The notes: generated by a model not told the origin, from the sequence alone. A stretch of 64,000 nt of DNA from an uncultured Gammaproteobacteria bacterium (GCA_963848305.1 CAWKDC010000001.1:704001-768000), one strand, 5' to 3'; positions 1,274 to 62,921 are shown, counted from the first letter of the stretch. Made by a program: numbers and translations.

Positions 1274-2378
1274 ATGCCCTATTTATCGAATTTTCATGTC
1301 ATACGGCCTGCATTTGAGTACGCGCAGGCCGATGCATTGGAGTGGATTGCGCGAGCCCATCAAATGTCTCAGGCCTATGACACGTCTGATGAAAATAATG
1401 AAATATTTTATGAGAAAATCGCAAGGCTCTTGATCAAAATCGGTATTGGCATGAAAAAAATTGAAAAGAGAAGCTCTGCAGTTCCAGATTACACGCACAC
1501 TGACTTTAACGCGATGACTATCTACGCTATCACGCTGGATAAAAAAGAAGGTCATGATTTAAAAACACGATCAGATTTTTTTGAACAATCTGCTGATAAT
1601 ACGTTTGAATCGTTTTATGACAGCTCGCCACTCCCCGACCATCTATTGCAAGTGACTTGCACAGGTTACACGTATCCCAGCGCCGCGCAAAAAATAGTCT
1701 CCCTAAAAAAAGCTTTTCAAACCACTATCACCAATGTCTATCACATGGGTTGTTATGCAGCGATTCCCGCTATTCGCCTTGCATCCGGGATGCTCAAAGA
1801 TCAACAAACTGCCGATATTGTGCATACAGAAATCTGTTCGTTGCACATGAATCCTGCTCTGCATGATCCCGAACAATTGGTAGTCCAAACATTGTTTGCA
1901 GATGGATTTATCAAATATACAGTCAGCAATATTCAGCAAAAGGGATTTGAAGTGCTATCAACCCACGAAGTGCTTATCCCTGAATCTATCGACTCCATGA
2001 GCTGGAAACAAGAAAGCTGGGGCATGAAAATGCACATTGCAAAATCGGTGCCATCATTGATACAACATCACGTTGCAGCATGTGTGAAAACACTCTTTGA
2101 AAAAGCGCAGATACCTTTTCAGGAAGCTTATTACGCCATTCACCCAGGCGGACACTAAAATCATCGAAGCCACTGCACAAACATTGGGACTAAAGGAATA
2201 TCAATTCCAACACAGCACGGATATTTTAAAACAATGCGGGAACATGTCTTCCGCGACACTGCCCCATATTTGGAACCATCTGTTGCATGATGATGCTGTT
2301 CAAGATGGTGCGGTGATACTGAGCCTGGCCTTTGGACCAGGGCTCACCGTTGCTGGGGCGGTCATGCGAAAGTGTTAG
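1274..2378 (+). CDS. Type III polyketide synthase (chalcone/stilbene synthase family), 1-nt frameshift at ~2154
   Basis: Catalytic Cys (MGCYAA), TEICSLH, LFADG and HPGG in ORF 1274..2158; GNMSSAT and AFGPGLT in ORF 2097..2378. Removing A2154 gives HPGGPKII. Confidence 0.9.
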
Positions 2379-3766
2379 CTGTACTTCCAGCGCGTTCCGC
2401 CACCAGGAATATCCTCGAGCAATATGCCTTTTCGGGCTAATTCCAAACGGATATCATCGGATTTATCGAAGTCTTTATGTTGACGCGCGTGTTCGCGCTT
2501 TTGAATGAGCGCCTCAATCTCTGCGATAGATAAGGAAGATTGTGCGGATTGGCCTTTTAAAAAGGTTTCGGGATCAGACTGCATGATCCCCAATATCCCC
2601 CCAAGCTGTATCAATGTGCCTGCCAATTGATCTGCCAGTTCGGTATCAATCGTTTTAGCTACGTTGATCTCACGAGCCAAATCAAATAAAACGGACATGG
2701 CTTCAGGTGTGTTGAAATCATCATCCATGGCATTCATAAACGATACTTTCGGCTCAGGTGCAATCGTGTGCTTGACTGGGTTTGTATCACGCAAGGCATT
2801 ATACAAACGCTCCAGTGAGGCTTTGGCTTTCTCCATGTTTTCGTCGGAATAACTGACATTGCTGCGATAGTGGCTCGATAATAAAAAAAATCGAACAACT
2901 TCGGGGTGATATTGCATTAAGACAGATTCAATGGTTAAAAAGTTTTTCAAGGATTTTGACATTTTTTCGTCATTGATATTCACAAAACCCACATGCATCC
3001 AAACATTGGCTAAAGGATGATGGTACGCTGCCTCTGATTGAGCGATTTCATTTTCATGATGCGGAAATTGCAAATCGTACCCGCCACCGTGGATATCCAG
3101 CGTATGCAGATCTTTCAACGCATGTTTTACCATTGCAGAGCATTCAATATGCCAGCCAGGACGACCTGGACCAAAAGGCGATGGCCAACTGATTTCGTTG
3201 TTTTTCGCGCTTTTCCACAACACAAAATCCATGGGCTCGCGTTTCGCGGTATTTACTTCCACACGTTCTCCCGCGCGCATATCTTCTAAATGACGGTGTG
3301 ATAATTTGCCATAATCTGGAAATGACTTCACTGAATAAAATACATCACCATTTGTGCCAATATACGCGACACCCTGATCAACCAATCGCGTGATCAAAGC
3401 CAGCATGTCTGAAATATGATCAGTGGCACAAGGTTCTGCTGTTGGAGACAATGTATTCAATAAATACAAATCGTCGTGCATTTTATCAGTAAAACGTTTT
3501 GTCAAGGCATCGATGGTCTCATTGTTTTCAGCCGCGCGCGCGATGATTTTATCGTCAATGTCTGTGATGTTTCGAATATAATTGACTTGATAGCCCAAAA
3601 AAGTTAAATAACGATAAACCATGTCAAAGGCGACTGCTGTTCGCGCATGACCAATATGGCAAATATCATACACCGTCATGCCACACACATACATATTCAC
3701 TGTGTTATCGTTCAGCGGTTTGAATAATGCTTTTTCACGTGTGAGTGTATTGTATATTTTAAGCAT
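2375..3766 (-). CDS. cysS: Cysteine--tRNA ligase
   Basis: YVCGMTVYD, HIGH, PGWHIECS, KMSKS. Confidence 0.98.
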   Translation of the reverse strand: MLKIYNTLTREKALFKPLNDNTVNMYVCGMTVYDICHIGHARTAVAFDMVYRYLTFLGYQVNYIRNITDIDDKIIARAAENNETIDALTKRFTDKMHDDLYLLNTLSPTAEPCATDHISDMLALITRLVDQGVAYIGTNGDVFYSVKSFPDYGKLSHRHLEDMRAGERVEVNTAKREPMDFVLWKSAKNNEISWPSPFGPGRPGWHIECSAMVKHALKDLHTLDIHGGGYDLQFPHHENEIAQSEAAYHHPLANVWMHVGFVNINDEKMSKSLKNFLTIESVLMQYHPEVVRFFLLSSHYRSNVSYSDENMEKAKASLERLYNALRDTNPVKHTIAPEPKVSFMNAMDDDFNTPEAMSVLFDLAREINVAKTIDTELADQLAGTLIQLGGILGIMQSDPETFLKGQSAQSSLSIAEIEALIQKREHARQHKDFDKSDDIRLELARKGILLEDIPGGGTRWKYS

Positions 3767-3793
3767 GATGCGCTCCTATATAGCTATTCCCCG

Positions 3794-5230
3794 TTACAAT
3801 ATATCACCCTTTGAACCCTTATATCTTTTAGCATCGTTCAGTCTTTTTTGAATGATATCCACATCACCCAATAACATCACCCATTTATCCATTTCCGGAC
3901 CATGCAATGTAGACATTAAAGCAATGCGCAAAGGCTGAAATAAAGCCTTGCCTTTTACCTGCGCATGTTCCTTCAAATAAGCGAGCCATGCTTGATAATC
4001 GAGCCCATGTTGTTCAAGCGCCGCGATCGCATGATCGAAAAAGGATGCAGGCGTTGCTTTCAAAATGGCTTGACATTCTTCATTCATCAACGTTAATGTG
4101 GATTCGCTGAAAGCACGTTCTGCCCATAATACCGCATCGTGCGGGAAAGTGACGTTCGGCGTGACAGTATCAATGAATAAATCTTGTTGATCATCCGGCA
4201 CGAGTGCATGAACAGCATCGCCCATCCAGGCAAATACCTCAGCAGGCGTTTTGAATTTGAACACTTCTTTTTGCCAAAATAATAATTGATTTTCATCGTA
4301 ACGAGCGGGAGATCGACCCAGCTGATCAATTTCAAAAAATTTGCCTAAATCTTCAATGCTCATCAATTCATTCTGTGGATAATAATGTCCCAGTCTCGCG
4401 AGATAATTCACGACGGCTTCAGGCCAATATCCTTTGAAGCGCATCTCACGAATACTTTGACTGCCATTACGTTTTGACAAGGGAGCCCCATCGGTTCCAT
4501 TGATCAAAGCAAAATGACCGTATTGTGGCGCCTTCATGCCGAGTGCCTGCAAAATCATTAATTGACGAGGCGTGTTGGTGAGGTGATCTTCTCCCCGAAA
4601 GGCATGGGTCACGCCCATCACGGAATCGTCGATCGCATTACAAAACATAAATGACGAACCACCATCCGCTCGACGAATGATGAAATCACCGATGTCGTCT
4701 GTGGCAAAAGTTTTTTCACCTTGCACCAAATCATTGAAGACAACATGGGTTGCACGTGGAATGCGAAAACGCAACACAGCTTTCTGCCCTTGAGCATATT
4801 TTTGTGCGACTTCTTCTTTCGTTAAGCGTGAACAGCGGCCATCATACCGAGGGGGTTGACCTGCGATCCGTTGCATTTTGCGACTGATTTTCAATTGTTC
4901 TTCTGTGCAAAAACAAGGATAGGCTAAATCCATGTCCAATAGTTTTTGATAATACAACTCATAGACTGTCTGACGCTCAGACTGGCGATAGGGTGCATGG
5001 GTGCCGTTGCACCCCTCGCCCTCTTGCCAATCTAACCCAAGCCAGCGCAGATCTTCCATCAAATAATGGATAAATTCTTCTTCAGAACGCATTTCGTCAG
5101 TGTCTTCAATCCGCAACAAAAAGATTCCTCTTTGATGCCGCGCAATCATCGCATTGAACAACGCCGTCCGCATGTTCCCCAAATGAATAAACCCAGTTGG
5201 ACTGGGCGCAAATCGTGTTTTAACTGTCAT
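3794..5230 (-). CDS. gltX: Glutamate--tRNA ligase (possibly a GluRS2-type paralog)
   Basis: RFAPSPTG, HLGN (HIGH-like), LRIEDTD, RGEDHLTNT, LSKR, C-terminal LFQPLRIAL. Confidence 0.95.
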   Translation of the reverse strand: MTVKTRFAPSPTGFIHLGNMRTALFNAMIARHQRGIFLLRIEDTDEMRSEEEFIHYLMEDLRWLGLDWQEGEGCNGTHAPYRQSERQTVYELYYQKLLDMDLAYPCFCTEEQLKISRKMQRIAGQPPRYDGRCSRLTKEEVAQKYAQGQKAVLRFRIPRATHVVFNDLVQGEKTFATDDIGDFIIRRADGGSSFMFCNAIDDSVMGVTHAFRGEDHLTNTPRQLMILQALGMKAPQYGHFALINGTDGAPLSKRNGSQSIREMRFKGYWPEAVVNYLARLGHYYPQNELMSIEDLGKFFEIDQLGRSPARYDENQLLFWQKEVFKFKTPAEVFAWMGDAVHALVPDDQQDLFIDTVTPNVTFPHDAVLWAERAFSESTLTLMNEECQAILKATPASFFDHAIAALEQHGLDYQAWLAYLKEHAQVKGKALFQPLRIALMSTLHGPEMDKWVMLLGDVDIIQKRLNDAKRYKGSKGDIL

Positions 5231-5298
5231 CTGAAAACCCTTTTTTAGCCACCAGGCATTTTAGCACAGCGCAACGCCAATCTGCTAAACTTAACCCC

Positions 5299-6015
5299 AT
5301 GATCACCCAACCTATTTATATCATTTCTGACCTCCATTTGGGGGATACTCATCCCGGCACGCTCGAAGCCTTTGAGCGATTTATCGACATCAAAGCCCGT
5401 AACGCCCACGCACTCTATATTCTGGGCGACTTGTTTGAAGCCTGGGTTGGTGATGATGATCACAGCGAAACAGCCCGGCGCGTCTCTGAGCGCTTGAAGC
5501 ACCTCACTGAACAAGGTGTACCCATTTATTATATGCATGGCAATCGTGATTTCCTGATAGGGAAAAACTTTTTAAATCAATCTGCTATGCAATTTCTACC
5601 TGATCCAAGTTTGGTCAGTTTTGATGGGCACCCCCTTCTCATGACCCACGGCGATTTGCTGTGCACCCAGGATACAGGGTATCAGCGTTATCGCCGTTTT
5701 GTGCATCATCCCTGGGTACAAAAGCTTTTCCTCGCCCTGCCCCGGTTCATGCGCGATTATCTTGGGGATAAGCTACGCGCAACCTCTCAGATGCAAGGAA
5801 GCCGCAAATCCATGGATATGATGGATGTGGATGAACAAACTGTTCAGGTTTGGCTGAAACGATATAAGGCTGATGTCGTCGTTCATGGTCACACCCACAA
5901 GCCTTTTGAGCATGTCAAACCCGGTTACACCCGCTTTGTGCTGGGAGCCTGGGATGAAGCCCCCCCAAAAATCCTCTCATATCATCGCGGAAAGTTCACT
6001 CTGATGGATATTTAA
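5299..6015 (+). CDS. lpxH: UDP-2,3-diacylglucosamine diphosphatase
   Basis: ISDLHL, GDLFEAWVGDD, HGNRDF, HGDLLCT, HGHTH, LGAW. Confidence 0.95.
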   Translation: MITQPIYIISDLHLGDTHPGTLEAFERFIDIKARNAHALYILGDLFEAWVGDDDHSETARRVSERLKHLTEQGVPIYYMHGNRDFLIGKNFLNQSAMQFLPDPSLVSFDGHPLLMTHGDLLCTQDTGYQRYRRFVHHPWVQKLFLALPRFMRDYLGDKLRATSQMQGSRKSMDMMDVDEQTVQVWLKRYKADVVVHGHTHKPFEHVKPGYTRFVLGAWDEAPPKILSYHRGKFTLMDI

Positions 6016-6114
6016 GCTTGATTTGTCACCGGCCAATACCACGCTTATCTAAACTTTAATCCTTCAGGAGACAAGACCATGACATTCTTCTGCGCCCTGG
6101 GATTTGTTTTATGG

Positions 6115-6240
6115 ATAAATCCTACCATCATGGGATTTATGTTTATTTCCAGTGCATTTTATATAATAATCCTATAGATGCAGGATTAATGTTGATATTC
6201 ATTCAAAAATCATCTATAATCCTGTGACTATAGGATTATA
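6115..6240. promoter_or_regulatory. Three palindromic operators AATCC-N10-GGATT upstream of hipBA, 50-bp period
   Basis: 6115-6140 ATAAATCC-N10-GGATTTAT; 6167-6188 TAATCCT-N8-AGGATTA; 6215-6240 TATAATCCT-N8-AGGATTATA. The third contains a TATAAT -10-like box. Confidence 0.8.
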
Positions 6241-6252
6241 CGGGCAACCGCC

Positions 6253-6531
6253 ATGGCTAATAAAGTTAAAAAAATTGACACACCTCATACAACAAAACCT
6301 CTCACCGCTGCATTATTGGGTGGGTACGTGCGTGCACGCAGAACACAACTAGGGCTCACCATCGAAGAAGCTGCAGCGTTGTCAGGGGTTGCCAAAGATA
6401 CGCTAATGAAACTAGAGCACGGACGCCACACCATACAGCTGGGTTCCGCGCTGGCAATTTGTCACGCACTGGGGGTAGAAATCAATGTTGTTTCATGGGA
6501 AGGTCACAATGAACAAGATGTCTGGGTTTAA
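6253..6531 (+). CDS. hipB: XRE-family HTH antitoxin (HipB-like)
   Basis: VRARRTQLGLTIEEAAALSGVAKDTLMKLEHG is an HTH_3 pattern; overlaps the start of hipA. Confidence 0.85.
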   Translation: MANKVKKIDTPHTTKPLTAALLGGYVRARRTQLGLTIEEAAALSGVAKDTLMKLEHGRHTIQLGSALAICHALGVEINVVSWEGHNEQDVWV

Positions 6532-7819
6532 ACATCAACTCAAAGCCTACTTGGGGCAAACCTTTATTGCCACCCTTACGTTATTGGAAAACAATCAACT
6601 AGAATTTACTTATCAACCTATGTGGGAAGAACAGGGTTATGCCCTATCCCCCCATTTGCCTCTCGACAACAGTGCAGCAAATGATCAATTTCGGATCAAA
6701 GTTTTTTTTCAAAATTTATTTCCGGAAGGCGAAAATTTAGAGATTTTTCTCAAAACATTCCACCTCAGCCAATATAATCTTTTTGCAATCACAATGACAC
6801 TAGGATTAGATTTACCTGGCGCATTGCAGTTGATTTTAACCACGGATACATTGCCTGACACCGGTTCATTTCGTGAAATCCATGAATCTGAAATCGTCGA
6901 ACGACTGAAACATTACAATGCACATAACCTCGTGATATGGGACGGCAAACCCCGGTTATCTTTGGCAGGTGTGCACCAAAAAATCAACGTTCTTCTCAAT
7001 CAGGACGGCGTATTAGGATTTGGCGAAGGCAGCCTATGTTCTACTCATATTTTAAAATTTGATCGCTCCCCTGATAAGAATATTGTACTAAATGAGTTTC
7101 TCATGATGAGACTGGCAAAATATGTTGGGCTTAATGTTGCAGATGTCTCAGTTCGTTATTTTGATGAATTTAACACTTTACTGATCAAACGATTTGACCG
7201 CCAATTGCGTGATAATCGCATCTGGAGACGACATATGATTGATGGTTGTCAGGCGTTAAATTTGATGCCTGAATATAAATATGAACGTCATCTTGGTAGT
7301 GGTCGTGATGTAAAGCATTTGCGTGAAGGCGCAAGCCTCCAGTCGTTATTTGAATTTTGTGAGTTGTGCAGAAATCCTGCCTTGGCTAAAAAGCAATGCA
7401 TCGAATGGACTTTATTTAATCTGATTATTGGGAACACCGATGCACATGGGAAAAACATCAGTTTCTTTGTCTCTGCGGCCGGCATAGAACCTGCACCCAT
7501 TTACGATTTAATATCGATTCGAATGTATCCTGAATTTTCACAAGAATTAGCAATGGCCATTGGGGATCAATTTGATTCAACAGCCATCTACGCTTATCAA
7601 CTGGCCGATTTTGCAGATACATGTGGGATCCCTCGTGATTTTGTTACAAAAACATTATTAGATTTGTGCGGAAAAATATCCACAGCACTTTCTGGGCTTC
7701 AATCATATGTGAGAAATGAGAAAGAAAAGCATTTTCTCAAAGAATTGACTGAACAGATTCGCGCGCAGATTGCACATTTTGAAACCCAGGCAGACTTGAT
7801 ATCATCAATGATTGTTTAG
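6509..7819 (+). CDS. hipA: HipA-family Ser/Thr kinase toxin
   Basis: LSPHLPL, FFQNLFPEG, SLAGVHQK, THILK, NEFLMM, RFDR, GNTDAHGKN, APIYD. Confidence 0.93.
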   Translation: MNKMSGFKHQLKAYLGQTFIATLTLLENNQLEFTYQPMWEEQGYALSPHLPLDNSAANDQFRIKVFFQNLFPEGENLEIFLKTFHLSQYNLFAITMTLGLDLPGALQLILTTDTLPDTGSFREIHESEIVERLKHYNAHNLVIWDGKPRLSLAGVHQKINVLLNQDGVLGFGEGSLCSTHILKFDRSPDKNIVLNEFLMMRLAKYVGLNVADVSVRYFDEFNTLLIKRFDRQLRDNRIWRRHMIDGCQALNLMPEYKYERHLGSGRDVKHLREGASLQSLFEFCELCRNPALAKKQCIEWTLFNLIIGNTDAHGKNISFFVSAAGIEPAPIYDLISIRMYPEFSQELAMAIGDQFDSTAIYAYQLADFADTCGIPRDFVTKTLLDLCGKISTALSGLQSYVRNEKEKHFLKELTEQIRAQIAHFETQADLISSMIV

Positions 7820-7889
7820 TGGAACAATCCGGTTAGCCCAGCTATAATCGATCGAGTATCATTCCCTTACCTTTCTCGGAGAAAACACG

Positions 7890-8337
7890 ATGAACATCAT
7901 AAAAACATTAACAACAACCGCCGTAATGGTTAGCTTAATGATGAATGTGAGCACTGTGGCAAATGCGACCCCAAGCGTAGCAACAGCACAAGAAATCACC
8001 GCTGCAGGCACGGCCCTTCAGCAAAGCCACTTGGACACAACTGAACGCCCTTTTACCCGTTGTCCAAGCACGGGTAGAGACTATCCTCAAAGGTACCGCT
8101 ACGGGTGCAATATGCCAAGGGAAAACACCCGCTGAGTGTGTGACAGCTTGTAGCACCAACTATCCGCTGTACTCCTCCTCTACTGGAGCCCCCACTGCCG
8201 CAGAAATGCAGGAAGCGCTACTCATCGCCCTTAACGATAATATCTTAAGTGGCATCCCCTTGCAAAACCTTAACACGTGCTGTAAAGCCGCCAACGGCGG
8301 TACAGCTTGCTCGACACCTGCTGTCTCTACTCAATAA
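7890..8337 (+). CDS. Secreted cysteine-rich hypothetical protein (~148 aa), frameshifted near 8012-8025
   Basis: Signal-peptide-like N-terminus (MNIIKTL...VANA). The frame of ORF 8140..8337 is open upstream (KATWTQLNALLPVVQARVETILKGTATGAICQGKTPAEC), so the two ORFs join. Confidence 0.65.
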
Positions 8338-8351
8338 TCCGACGTATGAAT

Positions 8352-8389
8352 GTAGGAACGCCCCTGTTTTGCAGGGGCGCACTCCTTGC
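8352..8389 (+). repeat. REP-like GTAG hairpin repeat, copy 1
   Basis: GTAGGAACGCCCCTGTTTTGCAGGGGCGCACTCCTTGC lies between convergent genes and resembles the copies at 9120 and 11269. Confidence 0.6.
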
Positions 8390-9102
8390 TAAAGGTGTGT
8401 ATCGAACACCCTGTCTAACCACTTAAACGTCGAGGCATAATTGCCTTTCAGTTTGCCGTGGTGCGCGGTGTGATGTTCTGAAGAACCCAGATGCTTCAAG
8501 CGATGCGCAATTCTCGACGGCATGCCTGAATGAATATGGATTTCATTGAAAGGACGGAACAAGGCATAGGCAAATAAGGCATAAGCATTCACCGAACCGC
8601 AATATAAATAAATGAAAAATACAGCCAATGCAATACCGATTGTCCCCATCATCCATTCTGCGGGATGCACATACAAATAATCCAGCGGCAAAGGCGAACG
8701 AACACGATGATGGATGGAATGGATGCGTTTAAACAACACAGGATTATGGTGCAACAACCGGTGACAACCGTAAAACCACAGATCATCTATGCCCATGATG
8801 AATAGCAATTGCACCAGCACTACCCACCAAGGGAAATCAGTTGACAAGGAAAATATAAAGCCGAACACCCCAAAAGCAAACACCGCCATGATACAAGTGC
8901 CAATGAAATTGGCATAAATCAGTGGGCGGCGTTTATCAAAATGATCCATATTAGGATGTAGGGAGAGGCGGCGAGCAAACACGGTTTCAGAACCCAATTG
9001 ATGCGCGGTCAATAGCCACGCATATGCGAAGGCGATTGTGTTGATGATGACCAAGATGAGTGCTAGCACAGTAAATTCCCTTTCAATTTTGCTGATGAGC
9101 AT
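8389..9102 (-). CDS. Sterol desaturase / fatty acid hydroxylase family membrane protein (start uncertain)
   Basis: Histidine boxes HRLLHH, HSIHH, HIHSG, HHTAHH; GNYA...WLDRVFDT; hydrophobic segments. Confidence 0.88.
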   Translation of the reverse strand: MLISKIEREFTVLALILVIINTIAFAYAWLLTAHQLGSETVFARRLSLHPNMDHFDKRRPLIYANFIGTCIMAVFAFGVFGFIFSLSTDFPWWVVLVQLLFIMGIDDLWFYGCHRLLHHNPVLFKRIHSIHHRVRSPLPLDYLYVHPAEWMMGTIGIALAVFFIYLYCGSVNAYALFAYALFRPFNEIHIHSGMPSRIAHRLKHLGSSEHHTAHHGKLKGNYASTFKWLDRVFDTHL

Positions 9103-9119
9103 ACGCGCCTTCGGCGCAT

Positions 9120-9162
9120 GGGCGCAAAGGAGTTTATCCCCGCGAAAGCGGGGACGTCCTAC
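9120..9162 (-). repeat. REP-like GTAG hairpin repeat, copy 2
   Basis: Reverse complement GTAGGACGTCCCCGCTTTCGCGGGGATAAACTCCTTTGCGCCC, downstream of sucD. Confidence 0.7.
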
Positions 9163-9190
9163 AAGGCGGCGCAGCATCCTTGCTGTGGAC

Positions 9191-10057
9191 CTACAACACA
9201 CCCATCAAGCGCTTTGCAATCTCTGCCGGTGAACGAACCGTTAACACCCCAGCGCGTTCCAAAGCCGCGTATTTCTCTTCCGCTGTGCCTTTGCCGCCCG
9301 AAATAATCGCGCCAGCATGACCCATGCGTTTCCCCTTTGGTGCTGTCACACCCGCGATGTAGCCCACCACTGGCTTCGTGACATACCCATGGATAAACTC
9401 AGCTGCCTCTTCTTCAGCCGTTCCTCCAATTTCACCTACCATAATAATAGCTTCTGTTTTGGGATCGTCCTGGAATAATCGCAAAATATCGATAAAGCTG
9501 GAACCTGGAATAGGATCTCCACCGATACCCACGCAGGTGCTTTGGCCCAACTTCAACTCAGTCGTTTGCTTGACACATTCATACGTCAGCGTGCCTGAAC
9601 GGGAAACGATACCAATTTTACCTGGCAAGTGGATATGACCCGGCATGATACCGATTTTGCATTCCCCAGGGGTGATCACACCCGGACAATTTGGACCAAT
9701 TAAACGGGCGCCACATGCATCCACATAAGGTTTGACCACCATCATGTCCATGGTAGGAACCCCTTCGGTGATACAGACAATCAATTTGATGCCCGCATCC
9801 GCAGCTTCAATGATCGAATCCTTGCAGAAAGGCGCAGGAACATAAATCACGCTGGCATCAGCCTGCGTGGCTTCAACAGCTTCGCGCACCGTATTAAACA
9901 CGGGCAAGCCCAAATGCTGCTGCCCACCCTTACCTGGCGTCACACCACCAACCATTTTGGTTCCATACGCCAATGCTTGTTCTGTATGGAATGTGCCTTG
10001 TTTCCCAGTGAAGCCTTGGCAAATCACTTTGGTGTCTTTATTAATCAAAATACTCAT
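9191..10057 (-). CDS. sucD: Succinyl-CoA synthetase alpha subunit
   Basis: [30 protein letters not shown]. Confidence 0.98.
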
Positions 10058-11223
10058 TTCACTGCCCTCACTGCATCCACGATTTTTTGCGCCGCATCAC
10101 TCAAACCATGCGCTGGCACAATATTCAACCCGCTGTTCGCCAATAATTGCGCACCTTCATCCGCACGGTTTCCTTCCAAACGAACCACCACAGGCACGGT
10201 CACTGAAACGGCTTTCACCGCCGAAATGATCCCTTCTGCAATCATGTCGCACCGCACGATACCGCCGAAAATATTCACGAGAATACCTTTGACAGAAGCA
10301 TCCGACAAAATGATTTTGAAGGCCTCACGTACACGTTCTTCCGTTGCGCCACCGCCGACATCCAAAAAGTTTGCAGGATCGCCACCGTGCAATTTGATGA
10401 TGTCCATTGTCGCCATCGCTAAACCTGCGCCATTCACCATACAACCAATGTTGCCATCGAGAGGAATGTAATTCAAATCCCACTCGTGTGCTTTGTTCAC
10501 ACGTTCATCTTCTTGCGAAGGATCGCGCATTGCAACCAATTCAGGTTGACGAAAACCTGCATTGTCATCCATCGTGACTTTTGCATCGAGACACAATAAA
10601 TTGCCGTCAGTTTTGATGACCAACGGATTGATCTCCAATACACTCAGATCACGCTCCACCATCATTTTACCCAAACCCATATAGAGCTGAACAAACTGTT
10701 TGGATTGGACATCGTTGAGTTTTAATTTAAAAGCTAAATCGCGAGCTTGATAAGGCAGCACGCCGATGTAGGGGTCGACTGCGACGCGATGAATTTTTTC
10801 AGGCGTATCATGTGCAACGGCCTCGATGTCTACACCCCCTTCTGTGGATGCCATGAAAACCACGCAGCCTAAACTTCTGTCAACCAGTGCGCTCAGATAT
10901 AATTCTTTCTCGATATCACAAGGCGTTTCGATCAATACTTGATTAACAGGCTGACCATTTTTATCCGTTTGATAAGTGACCAGGTGCGTGCCCAGTATAT
11001 CGTGTACAAATTTTTCAGCTTGGTCTGGATCGCTGAACAATTTCACACCACCTGCCTTACCGCGGCCACCCGCATGCACTTGCGCTTTGCAAACCCAGCG
11101 ATCACCGCCCAACATTTGCATCGCTCTTTTAGCATCGCTTCCACTGGTGACCACTTGGCCTTTTGACACAGGCAAACCATATTCAGCGAACAGCTGTTTG
11201 GCCTGGTATTCGTGTAGATTCAT
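10054..11223 (-). CDS. sucC: Succinyl-CoA synthetase beta subunit
   Basis: [42 protein letters not shown]. Confidence 0.98.
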
Positions 11224-11268
11224 CTTTGACTCCCATTTAATATACTATAAACAACCCCCGTCATTTGA

Positions 11269-11313
11269 GGGCGCAAGGGAGTTTACCCCCCGCGAAAGCG
11301 GGGGCACCCCCAC
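11269..11313 (-). repeat. REP-like hairpin repeat, copy 3
   Basis: GGGCGCAAGGGAGTTTACCCCCCGCGAAAGCGGGGGCACCCCCAC between sucB and sucC; nearly the same as 9120-9162. Confidence 0.7.
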
Positions 11314-11324
11314 GAATAACACTC

Positions 11325-12512
11325 TTACAAATCCAGCAATAAGCGTGCGGGATCTTCTAAAATATCTTTGATCGTTTTCAAGAATGACACGGATTCCTTG
11401 CCATCGATAATGCGATGATCATACGACATCGCAAGATACATCATGGGGCGTATCACAATTTGGCCATTCTCAACCACAGGACGATCTTCAATTTTGTGCA
11501 TGCCCAAAATAGCGCTTTGTGGAGGATTAATAATGGGCGTTGATAACAACGAACCAAACACGCCACCATTTGACACAGTGAATGTACCCCCCGACATGTC
11601 TTCAACCGATAATTTATTGTCACGCGCTTTCTTGGAATAGCCCATGATAGCACTTTCAATTTGCGCCAAATTCATGTTGTTCACATCACGGATGATCGGC
11701 ACAACCAAACCACGTTCAGTCGAGACAGCGACACCAATATCAAAATAGTTGTGATAAATCACGTCATTGCCATCAATGCTTGCATTGACGGAGGGAAAAC
11801 GTTTCAGTGCTTCCACAGCTGCTTTCACAAAAAATGACATGAAACCCAATTTTACGCCATGTTTTTCGAAGAAATCATCTTTATATTTTGCCCTGATATC
11901 GCTCACCGCTTTCAAGTTCACTTCATTGAACGTGGTTAAAATCGCTGCATTGTGTTGCGCACTCATGAGACGCTCTGCGATGCGTTGACGCAAACGAGTC
12001 ATCGGGACACGTTCCTCCATGCGCTCGCCCACAGCTTGAACAAATGGAGCCGCAGGCGCACGAGGGGCGGAAACTGGTGTCGCAGCTGGCGTGCCAATCT
12101 TTTGCAGTATATCCGCCGTGGTCACACGTCCGCCTTTGCCCGTACCAGACACCGAGCTGGTATCTACGCCGTGCTCTGCAGCCGTGCGTCTCGCAGCAGG
12201 CCCTGCCACAGCCGCAGATGTTTGTGCAGGGGCAGAAGCCACAGGAGCCGAAGCAGCTGGCGCTGCAGCAGCACCTTCTTCAAATAAAGCAATGACTTCT
12301 TCTGCTTTCACAACGCTGCCAGCAGGTTTGAGGATTTGTTTCAACACGCCGTCATGTGGGGCAGGTACTTCTAACATGACTTTGTCTGTCTCAATGTCCA
12401 CGATATTTTCATCGCGTTTGACAAAATCACCTACTTTTTTATGCCACGTGGACACCGTCGCATCAGCCACGGATTCAGGCAAAACGGGTACTTTCACTTC
12501 AATAGTCGTCAT
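11325..12512 (-). CDS. sucB: Dihydrolipoyllysine-residue succinyltransferase (E2)
   Basis: Lipoyl motif ETDKV, E3-binding GTGKGGRV, catalytic DHRIIDG. Confidence 0.98.
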
Positions 12513-15299
12513 ATTGTCTCCAAGGCTTGCGCCACCAGTGCTGTCTGTTGTTCAACATGTAAACTGTGATAACCTGTTGCTGGCGAAGCAGAGGCATCAC
12601 GGCCCGCATAACTCAATGTTTGATGTTTGGCCAATGAGGCGCGAAGATGGTGTTGCGTACAATACCATGCACCTTGATTTTCAGGTTCTTCTTGACACCA
12701 GACCACATCGTTTGCATTGGCATATCCCGCCAAGCATTCTGTCAAAGCTTTTTGAGGGAACGGATACAACTGTTCCACGCGAATGATCGCGACATTGCTC
12801 AATCCTGCATCCCGTTTCTTCTGCAACAGATCGTAATAAACTTTTCCACCACACACCACCACACGCGTCACATTATTGACAGGTGTTTTGTCCATGTCTG
12901 GAATAATTTCCTGGAAATGTCCGTTGAACAGTTCAGCCTTTGTCGACACCGCTGATTTATGACGCAATAAACTTTTCGGCGACATCACCACCAACGGTTT
13001 ACGGAAACGCTGCAACATTTGTCGGCGCAACAAATGGTAAATTTGCGCAGGCGTAGTAGGCGTGCACACCTGCATGTTGTGTTCAGCACACAATTGCAGG
13101 TAACGTTCCAAGCGTGCTGAAGAATGCTCAGGCCATGCCTTCATACCCATGTGGCAATAACATGGTCAAGCCGCAGTAGCGGTTCCATTTGGATTCTGCT
13201 GAACAAATAAATTGATCCATCACCACTTGTGCACCATTGGCGAAATCACCAAATTGGGCTTCCCATATGACCAATGAACGGGGCTCCGTACTGGAATAGC
13301 CATACTCAAAGGCCAATACAGCCTCTTCAGAGAGTAATGAATCGATCACGGTGAAATGATGTGGTTTTGAAATGGTCGATAAAGGGATATATTGCTCATC
13401 ATTTTTTTGCTCGTGCAATACAGCATGACGATGCGCAAACGTTCCTCGACCACAATCCTGCCCGCTCAAGCGTACAGAATACCCTTCTTTCAGTAAGGTG
13501 GCATATGCCATGGTTTCGGCAAATCCCCAATCGAATGGCAACTCACCAGCAGCCATTTTTTCACGGTCGGTATAGACTTTTTTCACTTGTGTTTGCAATT
13601 CAAATGTGGCAGGAATGCTTGTCACTGCTTTTGACAATGCATCAAACGTTTTTTCGTCTACCGTGGTATCTGCTGGCTTATCCCAATTGACTGTTAAAAA
13701 TGGTTTCCAGACATCTTTAAAGGGATTATCTGCATTTTCAACTAAATGAGTCACCGTGATTTTTCCTGCATCAAGTTGATCACGGTAGCGATCCACATAG
13801 GCTTCTGATTCATTTTGAGTGATGATTTTATCGGCAATCAAACGATCGGCATATATCGCGCGAGTGGTCGCATGCGCGCGGATATGCTGATACATCACAG
13901 GTTGGGTGGCAGCAGGTTCATCCGCTTCGTTGTGTCCATATCGACGATAACACACTAAATCAAGGACGATGTCTTTTTTAAACTTTTCGCGGTAATCAAA
14001 TGCAATATTGGCGATAAAAATGGCCGCATCAGGATCATCCATATTGATATGGAAAACAGGCGCTTCAATCATTTTGGCAATATCAGTGCAATAAGGTGTT
14101 GAGCGACTGTCCTCTGGATTAGATGTGGTAAATCCGACTTGGTTGTTAATCACGAGATGTACGGTACCACCCGTTTTATACCCGCGAGTCTGAGACATGT
14201 TCAATGTTTCCATGACACAGCCTTGCCCTGCAAAAGCAGCGTCCCCGTGGATGGCAATGGGTAACACTTGACTACCCGTCCAATCTTCGCGCCGTTCTTG
14301 TCGCGCACGAGCAGAACCTTCGACCACAGGCACCACAATTTCAAGATGCGAAGGATTGGATGCTAAGGATAAATGAACCACTGATTTATCTGTTTTAACA
14401 TCAGATGAAAAACCTTGGTGGTATTTTACATCGCCTGAACCAAAGGGTGCTTTGCGTTTGCCTTCAAATTCTTCGAATAATTCCGAGGGGGGTTTTCCTA
14501 ATAAGTTTACGAGCACATTCAAACGCCCACGGTGAGCCATGCCGATCACAACTTCTTGCATGTCCTGAGAACCCGCGCGCATGATGATTTGATCCAACAT
14601 CGGAATCAAGGTTTCGCCACCTTCGAGTGAAAAACGTTTTTGTCCGACATATTTATTGTGCAAATAACGCTCTAGACCTTCAGCAGCAGCGAGTTGTGTA
14701 TACACACGCTTGCGCAACTCAGGACCAAGTGTTGCCGTTCGATTGTCCACTTCAAAACGGGCTTGCAACCAGTCTTTTTCAACTTGTGATTCAATGTATG
14801 ACCACTGGGCACCCACTGTGCCAGTGTACATTTTTTCAAGCAGTGCGATGATTTCTTTCAATGTGGCTTGTTTTTTAAAGCTGAAAGGCGTTTCAAACGT
14901 GGTGTTCAGATCTTTTTCAGTTAAACCGTGAAATGCCAACGTTAATTCGCGCGGCGTTTCACGCTTCCACATGCCCAGTGGATCAATATCGGCTTTATGG
15001 TGACCCAGCGCACGGTATGACTCGATCAACTGATTCACTTCAATTTGTTTCTCGCTCACCGTAGCAGAAGCAGCAACTTGAACAACTGGTTGTTGCGCCA
15101 ATGCTAAAAACTTCGCCTGAATCGGCCGATGGGCAACGTCTTTCGCGCCTGCCCTCACGCTAGAAAAATAACGTTGCCATTCTGCATCGACTGAAGCCGG
15201 ATCATTTAAATAGGATTCGTAAAGTGATTCAATGTAAGCGCCACCATTTGAAATGGTGGATGAATTGACTAATTGGTTGTATGTATCGTTGTTTGACAT
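12509..15299 (-). CDS. sucA: 2-oxoglutarate dehydrogenase E1, frameshift at ~13132
   Basis: [36 protein letters not shown]. The conserved [15 protein letters not shown] is split across two ORFs. Confidence 0.96.
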
Positions 15300-15309
15300 T
15301 CCAAAAACC

Positions 15310-16048
15310 TCATTGTTTGTCAGCGTGATCTTTCAACATTTCTTGACGAATGTGCGCTATGGCTTTCGTGGGATTTAAATCTTTCGGGCACACATCCACA
15401 CAATTCATGATGCCATGGCAGCGGTATAAACTGTAGGCATCTTCAAATTGTTCCAAGCGCTTTTCGGTGGAGTCGTCTCTTGTGTCGACAATAAAACGGA
15501 AGGCCTGCAACAATGCAGCGGGCCAAAAATTTATCGGGGTTCCACCAAAATGATGGGCAAGACGTGGTGCAGCAAGCGCAAAGAATGCACTCATATAGAC
15601 CATCTAATTTTTCACGATCAGCGGGTGATTGTAAACGTTCTTTTTCAGGAGCAGGTTTGCTGTTTTGCAAATAGGGCTGAATTTTTTCGTAATGGGCATA
15701 AAACTGTGTCATATCAACAATCAAATCACGAATGACGGGTAATGAGGGTAAGGGACGAATTTGAATGGGTTGTTTGAATGCAGAAACAGGGTTGACACAG
15801 GTCAACACGTTTTTACCATTCACACTCATACCATCAGAGCCACAAACACCTTCACCACAAGAATGGCGAAACCCCAAAGTAGGATCCATTTCCTTGATTT
15901 TTTTGAGGGCGGTAAGCAGCATCATGTCGTGGCCGTCCTCGATGTCGAGGGTATAGGACTGCATGCGCGGCTTCTCATCGATTTCTGGATTGTATCGATA
16001 AATCGAAAATTCAACTGTTTTCATCGCGTTGGTTGCGGACATATTCAA
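15310..16048 (-). CDS. sdhB: Succinate dehydrogenase iron-sulfur subunit, frameshift at ~15522
   Basis: SCGEGVCGSD, CILCACCTTSCP, CHGIMNCVDVCPK. FLGPAALL is split across two ORFs. Confidence 0.96.
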
Positions 16049-16053
16049 CTCCT

Positions 16054-17826: not shown

Positions 17827-17829
17827 GCT

Positions 17830-18177
17830 TTATAGCCCCCACAGAATGACAAAACCCCAACCGAGGCAAACCAGCAACACCGCAGCCGAGGCCCATAAAA
17901 ACAAACAACGCAACGCGCCATGCAGATAATCTGTGGCCACAGACCAGATGCCTACCCATGCGTGCAAACAAAGCGCAGCGACGGCCAATAACGTCGGTGC
18001 CTTCATCCATGAAGGTTGAAACCAGCTGACCCAAACGCTGTATGATAAAGGCTCTGGGTGCAGTGCCAATGCGGCTATTAGTACGAATAAATAAATAGCC
18101 AATATAACAGCCGATACGCGCTGCATGATCCAGTCGAATGTGCCGGTGCTCCCAAGTGCGCCAGTTGGCTTCACCAT
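17830..18177 (-). CDS. sdhD: Succinate dehydrogenase membrane anchor
   Basis: DWIMQRVSA, HAWVGIWSVATDY; lies between sdhC and sdhA. Confidence 0.92.
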   Translation of the reverse strand: MVKPTGALGSTGTFDWIMQRVSAVILAIYLFVLIAALALHPEPLSYSVWVSWFQPSWMKAPTLLAVAALCLHAWVGIWSVATDYLHGALRCLFLWASAAVLLVCLGWGFVILWGL

Positions 18178-19965: not shown

Positions 19966-19966
19966 C

Positions 19967-19993: not shown

Positions 19994-19996
19994 CTA

Positions 19997-40897: not shown

Positions 40898-40915
40898 AAA
40901 AGCCCTCTTGAATAT

Positions 40916-47906: not shown

Positions 47907-47999
47907 GACGTATGCTCCGTTTTGAATACTTACTAGTCTATCACATAACCCCCACGGAAATAAATCCTTAAGGGGATTATACAGAGCATAGCCTATGCA

Positions 48000-50900: not shown

Positions 50901-52562
50901 ATTGAGTGAGGAAAATAAGGATAATAAGGAAAATGCAGTTTCACTATTTGAGGATCCGGAAACAAGAACTTTGGCACGCGCTATATTCAGATAATCATCA
51001 TTTTTTTTGCTCCATGTGGTTCTCCTCCACATGTTCAATTTAATACCTTTCAAGGTTGCGTATGCGAGCAAAACCAGTGGATGCGACCACCCTTGTTCAA
51101 CTTTTTGTTGAATTAAATCATAGTGTAAATAGGCATGAATCAAATAAGGATCCATTACCAATGCATCAAAAAAACGTTTACCTGCTGCCGGGGAGTCTCC
51201 ATTTGGATTAACATGATCTTTCAGCACATCCAGAATGTTGCGATTGACCAAATTCGTTCCCCTCAAACCATCGCGAATATCCCTATGCAATTCTTCGGAT
51301 GCTAAGTAATCATTAACATTTGTTTGACTGATCCGCTCTTTTAATGTTTGAGGTAATGCTTCCGATACTAAATACTGATAAAAATCTTGTTTAACCACTG
51401 CTAGCCGCAATGCATCCTTGACAATTTTCTTGACGATACTATGTTGATTGGGGACTAATGGCGTTTCATTTGAAGTGCAAGGTATCCATAAATTTTCTGA
51501 TAACAACTGATATGCTTCTTCACGGGTAGCACCGAAGGCCATAAAACTTTTATCTTGACGAGTCGGGAGAGGGCAAACAGTGTATTCATTGGGTTGTGCG
51601 CCAGGCTTCATGCGCCGAAGCTGTTTCTTGGAAGACTGATCCAAAAAGACTTCTTCACCATGTACCCCGAAGGAACTCACAAGATGATCAGTTTCGTCAG
51701 CTTGTGGATTAGGTGCAGGGTGATCTGAAGATTCACTTGGATCTTCAGTAAATAAAACACGTTGTCCTTCATCGATATCTTCTTTATAGTCTGTTAATTC
51801 AATGAAGCTGTCCTCGAGTATTGATAGTTTGTTGGATCCGTTGTTTTCTCCACTCTGTGAAGTGATTGACAACGTTTTCTGATCCAGTTTGGCCACAGCA
51901 CGCAAAACACAGATGGGTGATGCCCCGTGATTCACTTTACCCATGGATACGTCAAATCGAATATATGCGATGTACACTAGATCATGTTGGGGTAAGCATC
52001 TCTTTTCTTCATCAGTTAATGTTCTCTTTTCTTGAACCTCTGCAACCAGTGAAGCCACAGGCGTGACCAATGTTTCGAGTAATGCATCATCATTGACATA
52101 TTTTCTTACCTCCTGCTCTTGCTCATGAATATTCCTTGTTTGATTGATATGATCTCGGATCACTGGATCATTGATGATATGACCTATTTCAGAGGCGCGA
52201 CGCAGTTTCTCTTTCTTCGGTTGTACCGGTAATGTTTCACCGGGTTTATCTTTAGAAATAATGTCATGAAAAACAAGAAAATTCACGAACGAGTCCGTTT
52301 CTAAGGCAGCATCGACCGCTGGTTTAATCATTTCCTTGATTGACGCTAGGTGGCGCGTCATCAAACTGGCAGTTTCACGCCTAGACATCCCAAAAATGGC
52401 GTACACCCCATCGCCTTCTTCCCCTACAGGTCGTCGTATAAAATGATTTTCATGGTCATGGGTATATTCATATGTTTCATTGGTCACACTGAGGCCAGTG
52501 AGTTCAGCTAGATTGATTTTTTCTTCTGCATTAGCACGGTTAGATGCGCTGAATGAAAACAT
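48000..52562 (-). CDS. 1520-aa effector-like protein with ankyrin repeat and degenerate OTU-like domains
   Basis: HGNNLLHIA...GVDPGMQNVHGTRPVD (ankyrin); PEDNNSFFMAV...AGKPEIWAL...GGFYKSL (OTU-like); Pro/Ser-rich tail; AGGAG RBS. Confidence 0.8.
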   Translation of the reverse strand: MFSFSASNRANAEEKINLAELTGLSVTNETYEYTHDHENHFIRRPVGEEGDGVYAIFGMSRRETASLMTRHLASIKEMIKPAVDAALETDSFVNFLVFHDIISKDKPGETLPVQPKKEKLRRASEIGHIINDPVIRDHINQTRNIHEQEQEVRKYVNDDALLETLVTPVASLVAEVQEKRTLTDEEKRCLPQHDLVYIAYIRFDVSMGKVNHGASPICVLRAVAKLDQKTLSITSQSGENNGSNKLSILEDSFIELTDYKEDIDEGQRVLFTEDPSESSDHPAPNPQADETDHLVSSFGVHGEEVFLDQSSKKQLRRMKPGAQPNEYTVCPLPTRQDKSFMAFGATREEAYQLLSENLWIPCTSNETPLVPNQHSIVKKIVKDALRLAVVKQDFYQYLVSEALPQTLKERISQTNVNDYLASEELHRDIRDGLRGTNLVNRNILDVLKDHVNPNGDSPAAGKRFFDALVMDPYLIHAYLHYDLIQQKVEQGWSHPLVLLAYATLKGIKLNMWRRTTWSKKNDDYLNIARAKVLVSGSSNSETAFSLLSLFSSLNSESSEAVDFYEWLSKNKIKTKRDMHIFFTEGNQFERLEVLSKHEHVSKDTLKKLHHEKVKDKEKSSGVVMGRASYKMTPSDDFDPLAADVYARKGGELQSFYEKTAKEATENNLWNVLRYLIKDSDLRKKLEIRQLKDLQDIEKATQRLAVRSGILRRILNLLEYLSAASVLRGRVFPLWNETDDADKLTILQKVLEKIFDEYKKTLILEYTRSAADKREQDFITDDLQVVPKNTEQKIAEYVDMVEEYQLPYTAVQLMTVGGGIRQSIVTLSNILTELEGECSANEAVLNALSELVGLRDSSMLGRCINDRINIGTFLEGKDEFANKYKTDLIEIIGQGNIQGFQELRSNLGLSDGDFLYEFFGKYPPTVSPETIYEHGNNLLHIALQSDNPWKNLPMVRGLLMLGVDPGMQNVHGTRPVDVVTQLYRDDELGALMITRISLDNQLISGVANHRWLEQESSFIAAFHAYTKLEDAPKPDGVDPERAQKDKTRMTVYSPNGLFNTVPDPGVFSTGQVDYLISFDQKINYIMSHFKQLVMIDKVYFINPFYSAGEEIAYLNALIGAPESTILSDEQNAGKIAALKRRRIELSRLRALFFVTLITVSMRSHMTYVKDALELTAGRSKLPQSELTNDENIALRNAVVSFDKTRDIIKIYQNIAQVALARHSVKSDLPFVEYIEAMMKNQAIHPFPIENYRNIILQLHEVATKYRREPGQFGRKHDEYALSQFQRELQPLLVEHDRLRGEVGKCQGGSVEGESAQGSSHPINDLYPLEFPEDNNSFFMAVESQLNHIRYRGILTASRIKEQVIEHMNANRSMYFLGAIRDDAALTIHLQGITEGTISAGKPEIWALVRIFSLHIHVRESDGRVHRYGSESPHKIHLELTAGGFYKSLLPNGSSITQGASQLTPAGTSPTQSPPLNRPLTLPTPLSPGLRGPGRSSGVYFTQPNRGDWQPGSSLRPPERRN

Positions 52563-52896
52563 ACTATTTCTCCTACAACTGAGTGACTTTAGAGCATATA
52601 CTCTTTTCGGTATCAGCTGATATTATCTCGCATATTAGCAGTGAAAAGCTACAGACAATGTCTGTAAGTTGTGTGAGAGATTGACTATTATAAAGATTTG
52701 TTAATTAGATTCGTTATTATGGCCGTGGGTCCTCTTAACATGGCTAAGCACCCTGTGTAAACCCAACCTTTGCTCTATTGCCGAACATTTCTATTTAGCC
52801 AGGGATAGCACATCTCTAAATCGCGCAAGCGTCCCGGGCACGTATACGTGACCTGGGAACCATTGACATGGGATGTAGGCGCCACGTGTTAATGTC

Positions 52897-60932: not shown

Positions 60933-62438
60933 TTAAAAATGGACTAATTGTTGATTGCTGTCAATTGTGATTGTCATATTTTTATATTGACGAGATAATG
61001 TCTTTAATTTTGTGCTGACAGTGTGATCAATTAATGTGACTGCATTTAAATTAACCACCACCGATTCACTGTTTTCACAGGCTTTGACAACAATAGATTT
61101 TAATTTGGTGTAACCTAAGAAAGTCAGTGGTCCATCGATCTCAATATAAGAAACTTGCCCTTTCTGTTGAATAGAGATGCTGGGAGAAATAAGCTGATTC
61201 AATCTATTTCCCTTGAGCATATGAATGAACAATTTTGAGAAAACACCCAAAATAACACCGTTCAATAATCCAAACATCAATGTTGACATGAATGTCACAG
61301 AGAAAACAATGAATTGCTCTTTACCTACCTTGAAGGCATGAATAAATTGATGTGGCGCCGCAAGCCTAAATCCGACAAATACTAAAATCGCTGCCAATAC
61401 AGAAAGTGGGATCAGGTTGATAATGCCAGGGATAACGAGCACGGCTATTAACATGCATATTCCATGGGTGATATTTGATCTCTGCGATGTCGCTCCATAA
61501 TCAATATTGGCTTTACTACGGACAATTTCAGAAATCATCGGCAGGCCGCCTATCAAAGAGCTGACCAAGTTTCCCACACCCACTGCGATTAAATCATGAT
61601 TCAAGTCAGATGGACTGTTTTCTGGCGTCATTTCATCGATGGCACATACTGTCAATAATGATTCGATCGAACCCACCAACGCAAACAAAATGATGTATTT
61701 TAAGCTGGATCCCGTGAATAGCGATGAAAAATCAGGGAACGTGATACTTCCAAAAATCTGATCAGGAATATTGATAAGAAAGTCAGTGCCCAATGCATAT
61801 TCCTTGCCCCAAAAAAAATAATGATCCGCATCCCTCAGCCCGAGCAAAAAGGAGAAGGGTATCACAATAATCAATATTGCTATCGTTGAAGGAATCATCG
61901 ATATTTTTTTCAAGTATGGCCAACACACAGCCATGACAAAAGAAATCATGCCAAATAAAAAAATCAAAGGATTCAGATTCATAATCTCTAAGGGAAGTTG
62001 TACCAGTGATAGAATAGATTGAGAGGAAGCTGGGGGTAAACCCATCATCACATAAAGTTGCTGTGAAATAATGATGACCCCAATGGCTGATAGCATACCG
62101 TGAATCACAAATGGTGGCATCACTTCCACCATCACTGCTTTTTTAAGCAGCCCTATCCCTATTTGTATGAGCGCAGCAACGACCCCCACAGCCAGAGCAC
62201 ATTCATATCCCAGATCTGTCACAGCGCCCGTTGCAATGACAATTAATCCAGCAGCTGGGCCTTTGATTGATAATTTTGCCCCACCAAAAAATGAAGCAAT
62301 CACACCTCCCACAATGGCTGAAATAATACCCGCAATGGATGGATAATTACTGGCCATCGCAATCCCCAAACACAGAGGAAGTGCTAATAAAAATACGCTG
62401 AAACCTGCCATCACATCTTTTTTGAGCGAACTATGCAT
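60933..62438 (-). CDS. SulP-family anion transporter with STAS domain
   Basis: ALPLCLGIAMAS, GPAAGL, ESLLT, GGLPMISEIVRS, C-terminal STAS-like segment. Start is 62438 or 62450. Confidence 0.92.
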   Translation of the reverse strand: MHSSLKKDVMAGFSVFLLALPLCLGIAMASNYPSIAGIISAIVGGVIASFFGGAKLSIKGPAAGLIVIATGAVTDLGYECALAVGVVAALIQIGIGLLKKAVMVEVMPPFVIHGMLSAIGVIIISQQLYVMMGLPPASSQSILSLVQLPLEIMNLNPLIFLFGMISFVMAVCWPYLKKISMIPSTIAILIIVIPFSFLLGLRDADHYFFWGKEYALGTDFLINIPDQIFGSITFPDFSSLFTGSSLKYIILFALVGSIESLLTVCAIDEMTPENSPSDLNHDLIAVGVGNLVSSLIGGLPMISEIVRSKANIDYGATSQRSNITHGICMLIAVLVIPGIINLIPLSVLAAILVFVGFRLAAPHQFIHAFKVGKEQFIVFSVTFMSTLMFGLLNGVILGVFSKLFIHMLKGNRLNQLISPSISIQQKGQVSYIEIDGPLTFLGYTKLKSIVVKACENSESVVVNLNAVTLIDHTVSTKLKTLSRQYKNMTITIDSNQQLVHF

Positions 62439-62446
62439 GATAAACC

Positions 62447-62921
62447 TCATGTTTGAAGCAAAGTGAGAATGCCTTTTAAAATAGCCGTTGGTGTGGGAGG
62501 ACATCCTGGTATGTTCATATGAACAGGAATGACATCTTTCACAGACGAGCACGTTGCGTATGTTTTACCAAATATTCCGCCGTGACATCCACAATCCCCT
62601 AAGGCTATCACCCATTTAGGATTTGGCATCGCGTCGTAGGTGCGTTGCAATGGAACGATCATATGACGCGAAACAGGCCACTGTGACCAATAAGATATCG
62701 GCGTGGCGCGGACTTGCCACAAAATGAATGCCGTATCCTTCAAGATTATAGTAAGGATTACTCAATGCATTGATCTCTAATTCACATCCATTGCAAGAAC
62801 CCGCATCAACATGACGAATGGCAATAGACCGACCAAAAATGCGAATAACAGATTGTTGCAAATCCAATCGTGGTTCTGAAATAATACCAATCTGCGCAAT
62901 TTTCTTGAGAATGTCCAACAT
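62447..62921 (-). CDS. NuoB/HyfI-like small Fe-S subunit of an Ehr complex, frameshift at ~62680
   Basis: GSCNGCELE, SPRHADILLVT|GPV split across frames, ALGDC, IPGCPP. Confidence 0.9.

Follow-up and report, generated by a model that had tools for sequence, protein, structure and literature searches.

The window analysed here, a stretch of 64,000 nucleotides (nt; G000:C1:704001-768000) from the genome G000 of an uncultured, metagenome-assembled gammaproteobacterium, contains a set of conserved genes that appear to be broken by frameshifts, and these frameshifts are almost certainly consensus sequencing errors and not real lesions. They concentrate on the palindromic pentamer GGNCC, the predicted target of a C5 cytosine DNA methyltransferase encoded within the window itself, and methylation of GGNCC by this enzyme is very probably the cause of the errors. 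A Pfam scan of the window identified, in split form, a type III polyketide synthase (PKS)-like gene, sucA, sdhB, sdhC, gltA, a Fic-domain gene and a NuoB/HyfI-like hydrogenase subunit gene, and an outer membrane protein (OMP)-like gene is present in three pieces without a Pfam match. This open reading frame (ORF) and Pfam analysis confirmed the split genes reported in a preliminary description of the window. The pieces lie at 1205-2155 and 2088-2375 for the PKS-like gene, 13131-15332 and 12512-13165 for sucA, 15446-16075 and 15310-15603 for sdhB, 18576-19556 and 19402-19962 for gltA, 40382-40966 and 39760-40497 for fic, and 62619-62933 and 62447-62743 for the HyfI/NuoB-like gene.

What was observed directly is that the window and independently assembled contigs disagree, that the disagreements are restricted to GGNCC and that the reading frames are restored by correction. 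Contigs from four public runs (X1-X4, belonging to four studies) were aligned to positions 1-20000 of the window, and the 21 difference rows obtained were grouped into 16 loci. At 11 of the 16 loci the read version contains GGNCC, including all six lesions that the preliminary description had named in this part of the window (2150, 8012, 13131, 15520, 18420 and 19459), while GGNCC with 2 nt on either side makes up 1.11% of the bases in 1-20000 (binomial p=1.3e-18). At every one of these 11 loci all covering contigs (1-2 contigs, from 1-2 runs) contradict the window, which bears out the earlier proposal of read errors. The remaining five loci (9243, 12618, 14079, 14420 and 15432) are without GGNCC and, since another run matches the window at each of them, resemble variation between strains or errors in a contig. 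The deletion at 9243, carried by one X1 contig, was considered as a window error and rejected, as X4 lacks the deletion and the SucD encoded in the window is 93% identical across the site to that of the congener used for comparison (G001); either a strain difference or an error in the contig is its probable origin. In the read-supported version of 1-20000, 11 of 24 distinct GGNCC loci are miscalled in the window, a number to which contig-uncovered sites could add.

Six of the 11 GGNCC loci change the reading frame and five do not. In the type III PKS-like gene the window carries GGACAC (2150-2155) with a surplus base at 2154, where X2 and X3 read GGACC. In an ORF of no known family (8012-8017), GGCCC is followed by a surplus T at 8017 according to X1 and X2. 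The sucA lesion (13131-13134) is a GGCC with two bases missing (13132), read as GGGCCC in X3, and a frameshift-aware alignment sets this event at 13133. In sdhB (15520-15524) the window has GGGCC with two C missing (15522; GGGCCCC in X1), in sdhC (18418-18423) one G is missing together with an A>G change (18418/18419; GGGCCC in X3), and in gltA (19459-19464) two G are missing in front of GGGCCC (19458), for which X1 gives GGGGGCCC. The other loci comprise a compensated miscall (+1, substitution, -1) at 1449-1453, with GGTCC in X2 as the sole covering contig; two adjacent substitutions (5002 and 5003, within 5000-5006), with GGTCC in X1 and X3; two symmetric substitutions at 15123 and 15128 (15123-15128), turning the GGGCCC of X1 and X3 into CGGCCG; and two synonymous substitutions at the central N of GGNCC, at 12201 (12199-12203, X1) and 18737 (18735-18739, X3). 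With the read-supported corrections, single ORFs of 390 amino acids (aa) for the PKS-like gene, 941 aa for sucA and 255 aa for sdhB are obtained, along with a gltA of 463 aa (stop-to-stop), a continuous sdhC frame and a 162-aa ORF at 8012. Since the read-supported differences yield single ORFs, the genes of the tricarboxylic acid (TCA) cycle are whole, as the preliminary description had held. Concerning the two orientations of the motif on the + strand of 1-20000, GGTCC is wrong at 4 of 5 loci and GGACC at 1 of 8 (Fisher p=0.03, small sample); genome-wide footprints of GGTGCC and GGCACC are about equal (5 and 4), so that this asymmetry may be noise.

The same association was found throughout the genome. 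Stop-to-stop ORFs of at least 90 aa (961 queries, from 1,031,577 bases of G001) were searched against G000 with a match threshold of at least 45% identity, a junction being defined by adjacent alignments in different frames, and the 698 queries that matched gave 92 frame-switch junctions in G000. Upon frameshift-aware alignment, three junctions scoring below 100 and one duplicate position were dropped, leaving 89 events for an aligned coding length of 671,721 bases; extrapolated to the whole genome, this would amount to some 200 or more errors that alter the frame, for the most part at GGNCC. Five in-window events were excluded, including those at 5246 and 5298 in a poorly aligned N-terminal stretch of 48% identity, and the 84 events outside the window were tested against a background of 40,000 random positions within the same aligned coding regions, which takes care of the caveat that Gly-Pro codons always form GGNCC. 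GGNCC lies within 8 nt of 32/84 events as compared to 1.55% of the background (24.6-fold, p=1.8e-35), with GGSCC at 24/84 vs 1.05% (27.2-fold, p=2.2e-27) and GGWCC at 8/84 vs 0.51% (18.8-fold, p=1.6e-08), and GGTGCC/GGCACC, an apparent further form with one base gained, at 9/84 vs 0.64% (16.7-fold, p=5.2e-09). A motif-free k-mer scan likewise ranked GGCC at the top for k=4 and GGCCC/GGGCC together with GGACC/GGTCC at the top for k=5, that is, all four GGNCC words. When events were classified hierarchically, GGNCC itself, or a word one indel away from it with GG and CC retained, was present at 62/84 events vs 9.7% of the background, and the same scheme gave 28.6% vs 11.4% for CCNGG, 25.0% vs 19.7% for GCNGC and 20.2% vs 15.8% for CGNCG. 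The looser idea that lesions lie one edit from GGNCC was sustained for the class keeping both GG and CC and failed for the weakest class, retaining GNCC or GGNC only (8/84 events vs 12.9% of the background).

Comparison with control motifs, a check of the kind proposed beforehand, gave 0.9-fold for GCGC, 1.2-fold for CGCG, 1.3-fold for GATC, 1.6-fold for CGNCG, 1.9-fold for GCNGC, 2.3-fold for CCGG and 4.3-fold for CCNGG. The mild CCNGG signal reflects co-occurrence, since 8 of 11 CCNGG windows at events also hold a GGNCC-type word. Classical homopolymer errors, against which the preliminary description had cautioned, were rejected as the main cause, with runs of at least 4 and of at least 5 each at 0.9-fold. 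When sites with an event no more than 10 nt away were counted, GGGCCC had the highest rate (7/26, 27%), as compared to 1.0% of CCNGG, 0.7% of GGCC outside GGNCC and 0.4% of GCNGC sites. These figures bear on the alternative that GGNCC, or else short junctions between G runs and C runs, are a weak point of basecalling or polishing irrespective of methylation, with the methyltransferase present by coincidence. Such a weakness would fit the many affected sites that are G/C runs (GGGCCC, GGGCCCC, GGGGGCCC), the top rate of GGGCCC and the 2.1-fold frequency of G/C runs of at least 3 at events, and it dispenses with the methylation that we infer. It is, however, at odds with GGACC and GGTCC, which lack such a run and are yet enriched 18.8-fold, with read-validated cases at 2154, 1449-1453 and 5002, and with CCNGG, CCGG and GCNGC, which have equal composition and are not enriched after removal of co-occurrence. 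Together with the low rate of GGCC outside GGNCC, and with an error motif that coincides exactly with the prediction for the sole C5-methyltransferase and its Eco47II-family partner, this makes a mere context weakness improbable as compared to methylation of GGNCC.

The excess of frameshifts belongs to G000, as the reverse search of G000 ORFs against G001 gave only 11 junctions in 759 queries against the 92 in 698 described above. Among the genes that appear broken are rpoB (two events), polA, transketolase (two events), aspS, mnmE, dxs, fructose-bisphosphate aldolase (two events) and those for topoisomerase A and B subunits, and with rpoB, polA, aspS, topoisomerase and like genes all affected the lesions cannot be real in a living cell. 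In pseudogene-rich reduced genomes of host-restricted bacteria many conserved genes are in pieces, and G000 resembles these in having conserved genes in two or more pieces; unlike there, independent reads restore the frames, one motif is shared and essential genes are affected. Real mutations, arising in a degrading small genome or from damage at restriction sites and leaving the TCA and other genes as pseudogenes, would agree with the small genome (1.89 Mb), with 92 junctions in 698 conserved ORFs and with the circumstance that the compared contigs may stem from other strains. We nevertheless regard them as extremely improbable: outside the GGNCC-linked sites, contigs from up to three separate studies match the window for hundreds of bases without a single deviating letter, and at each such site they carry an intact frame, rpoB, aspS, polA and topoisomerase genes would be among the broken ones, and substitution-type and compensated discrepancies also fall on GGNCC, a pattern unlike decay. 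A consensus collapsed from several co-occurring strains, with indels wherever the strains differ, would similarly draw on the presence of related strains in the runs, as seen from the differences resembling single-nucleotide polymorphisms at 12618, 14079, 14420 and 15432 and the single-contig indel at 9243. Strain differences, however, would not keep to one palindromic pentamer, and other runs match the window at the strain-like differences and at none of the GGNCC sites, so that such a collapse is judged highly improbable. Consensus errors at GGNCC remain the reading adopted here.

For lesions of the window beyond position 20000, placement relied on homologues. In fic, the break claimed at 40415 within GGCACC (40415-40420) was recovered by frameshift-aware alignment with two homologues, which puts a surplus base at about 40417, and fic homologues are present in contigs C20 and C31 of G001 as well as in the relative G004; none of the three genes (PKS, fic and OMP) occurs in the compared 1.03 Mb of G001. 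For the HyfI-like gene, a break at 62676 within GGCCAC (62676-62681) was likewise upheld, with a surplus base at about 62681 in an alignment with five NuoB-like paralogues, and five close relatives yielded just such paralogues, of 38-42% identity. The first shift of the OMP-like gene, described as a lesion at 41460, was bracketed to 41457-41497 by tblastn with a homologue from G065, which supports the shift and leaves its exact position within the bracket; this interval contains GTGTCC (41458-41463), which on the opposite strand reads GGACAC, the word validated by reads at 2150. The second OMP-like shift, correctly set outside the motif by the preliminary description, is real, with one surplus base at about 41765. 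The junction windows at 45027 and 46764 do hold GGNCC as stated earlier, in the form of an intact GGACC (45027-45031) and an intact GGCCC (46764-46768), each within the overlap of two ORFs of no known family and each with a putative frameshift. A search for homologues of the ORF at 44939-46780 found none, either among 150 further genomes of this class or among proteins of near or longer length in the protein collection.

The methyltransferase gene (34307-35605, minus strand) matches PF00145 (E=1.1e-86) and TIGR00675 (E=6.5e-83), and a profile search of the whole G000 genome returned it as the sole PF00145 gene. Its frame is open, and FAGAGG, PCQ, ENV, QKRERL and GNAVP are present, which we take to be the usual catalytic motifs of C5-methyltransferases. 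An N-terminal MerR-type helix-turn-helix (HTH) domain (PF13411, E=4.6e-8; residues 12-65) may allow the enzyme to regulate its own expression. Adjacent on the same strand lies an Eco47II-family restriction endonuclease gene (35676-36458, minus strand; PF09553, E=1.5e-50, profile positions 1-201 of 202), which is intact and without internal stop. By established restriction-modification logic, the intact endonuclease adjoining it would require the window methylase to be active. That GGNCC is the target of this methyltransferase, as predicted in the preliminary description, is supported indirectly by its standing as the sole PF00145 gene, by its PF09553 neighbour and by the unbiased recovery of GGNCC with all four N, and the errors point indirectly to an active GGNCC system in an uncultured gammaproteobacterium of soil and wetland. 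Other methyltransferases were considered as the source of a second error motif and rejected: one Dam-like gene occurs in G000, yet GATC is just 1.3-fold at frameshift events, no PF01555 gene was found in the genome, a PF02384 match is weak, and none of these candidates leaves a trace at frameshifts.

A gene matching PF09553 was found in one of the 31 genomes searched, namely G000, and in none of its 30 relatives, G001 included. Directly upstream of the pair lies a tmRNA gene (ssrA; 33454-33848, plus strand) with the tag ANYDNHADEIAVAA, and the stretch 34000-41000 is low in G+C (33-40%). Owing to the absence of PF09553 from the 30 relatives, the site beside the tmRNA gene and the low G+C, the Eco47II-type system was probably acquired horizontally, as judged from sequence features, and the stretch downstream of ssrA looks like a genomic island; a search with 14-mers found no direct repeat of the tmRNA 3' end downstream. 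The low-GC stretch holds, in addition to the restriction-modification pair and the Fic gene, a gene for a Cas4/RNase-H-like protein (38281-39711).

The errors most probably arise as follows. The Eco47II-type C5-methyltransferase would methylate GGNCC on both strands, and a long-read basecaller or polisher would misread the signal around the methylated sites, so that a substantial proportion of GGNCC sites would carry systematic errors in the consensus. These errors would take the form of a gain of one base (GGACC to GGACAC, with GGTGCC/GGCACC among the genome-wide events as a putative further case), a loss of 1-2 bases from G or C runs (GGGCCC to GGCC) or substitutions (GGGCCC to CGGCCG). Length errors not divisible by three act as frameshifts, and hence genes look split though they are whole. 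Relative to G001, the density of GGNCC in G000 is raised by a factor of 1.11, as compared to factors of 1.5-1.9 for words of similar composition and of 1.9 for GGTGCC/GGCACC and GTGTCC/GGACAC; the deficit in GGNCC density fits a loss of the motif through miscalls, and restriction avoidance would look similar.

Systems of this type are known. In the available part of PMC10305163 a homologue of Eco47II serves as a predictor of GGNCC, and a 5-methylcytosine (5mC) system with GGNCC specificity, SagCOH1II, was demonstrated by nanopore calling and restriction assays, according to the accessible portion of PMC13343189. The window pair is like Eco47II-, Sau96I- and Cfr13I-type systems in placing a PF09553 endonuclease beside a C5-methyltransferase and in an error motif of GGNCC with any N, and unlike them in the MerR-type HTH domain of a methyltransferase whose specificity and activity are predicted. 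Lineage-specific, polishing-resistant and motif-bound nanopore errors caused by modification are documented in the accessible text of bioRxiv 10.64898/2026.01.14.699587 and in the excerpted part of PMC10687267, which describes them in Listeria at GCAGC / GCTGG. As far as that excerpt goes, the Listeria errors resemble those of G000 in involving one short motif and a lineage-specific modification system, in surviving polishing, in lowering the apparent quality and in allowing the motif to be recovered from the errors. They differ in being mismatches, while 6 of the 11 read-validated loci in the window change the frame, and in their motifs, GCAGC / GCTGG as opposed to GGNCC, the latter found in a metagenome bin with a predicted modification. 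A full-text literature search, judged mainly by titles and without supplementary files, found no report of assembly errors at GGNCC, and the motif-specific GGNCC indel pattern may thus far have escaped description. The artefact itself is of a known kind, and its value is for curation and not for biology. A broader generalization, namely that 5mC at GGNCC gives rise to mostly-indel long-read errors (+1, -1, -2), affecting about half of the sites in 20 kb and accounting for about three quarters of the frameshifts in the genome, is put forward tentatively, its chances being placed slightly short of even.

Several observations weigh against methylation-driven errors at GGNCC as the full explanation. 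Both 5mC and the nanopore platform are parts of the explanation that we infer, and the modification errors documented so far are mostly mismatches, with PMC10687267, in its available part, excluding indels as their source there. The read-supported differences rest on 1-2 contigs each at a depth of 2-5, no sequencing platform is recorded for the runs, and X1 may be the source sample itself. The in-window shift at about 41765 has no GGNCC-type word nearby, and 22/84 genome-wide events are without a GGNCC-type word keeping GG and CC. Of the 828 GGNCC sites that survive in conserved coding sequence, 42 (5.1%) have a frameshift at a distance of up to 10 nt, and with so few of them near a frameshift the error must be context-dependent and not obligatory. 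Finally, GGNCC occurs in 3/11 junction windows of the reverse control in G001, in which no PF09553 gene was found; these three may reflect errors that G000 itself brings in through the query ORFs.

The consequences concern annotation. The TCA-cycle and PKS-like genes of the window are not to be read as pseudogenes, and the same holds for the Fic and hydrogenase-subunit genes, in their case by position alone. Metabolic reconstructions and the completeness estimate of G000 (92.37% vs 99% for G001) are biased by the artefact. As a rule for curation, frameshifts that share a palindromic word matching an encoded methyltransferase should be treated as errors and re-polished with a methylation-aware model or short reads. 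If 5mC at GGNCC does give rise to mostly-indel errors of this kind, lineages with an Eco47II/Sau96I-type methyltransferase would appear pseudogene-rich and less complete in long-read-only catalogues, and error footprints alone would reveal an active restriction-modification specificity in an uncultured organism without signal data.

As regards the source organism, G000 is assembled into four contigs totalling 1.89 Mb, with 46.5% G+C as compared to 41.8% in G001. Its SdhA shares no more than about 70% identity with Gammaproteobacteria counterparts, and the window sequence is present in public soil and wetland metagenome runs. Among the frameshifted genes of G000 is the orthologue of a 757-aa protein of G001 (L061:4818-7088), whose TrbI-like C-terminal domain points to a component of conjugation or type IV secretion.

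Other features of the window include a HipB-like HTH gene and a HipA-like kinase gene (6220-7816, plus strand), which form a toxin-antitoxin pair, and a gene for a GLUG-motif protein (42736-43956). The region 44355-52622 (minus strand) carries large ORFs of 236, 614, 417 and 1540 aa without a Pfam family, of which the 614-aa ORF found no homologue in 150 genomes of the class or in the protein collection. At the end of the window (62447-63998, minus strand) lies a group-4-hydrogenase-like or complex-I-like module with a small subunit matching PF01058 and a large subunit matching PF00346.

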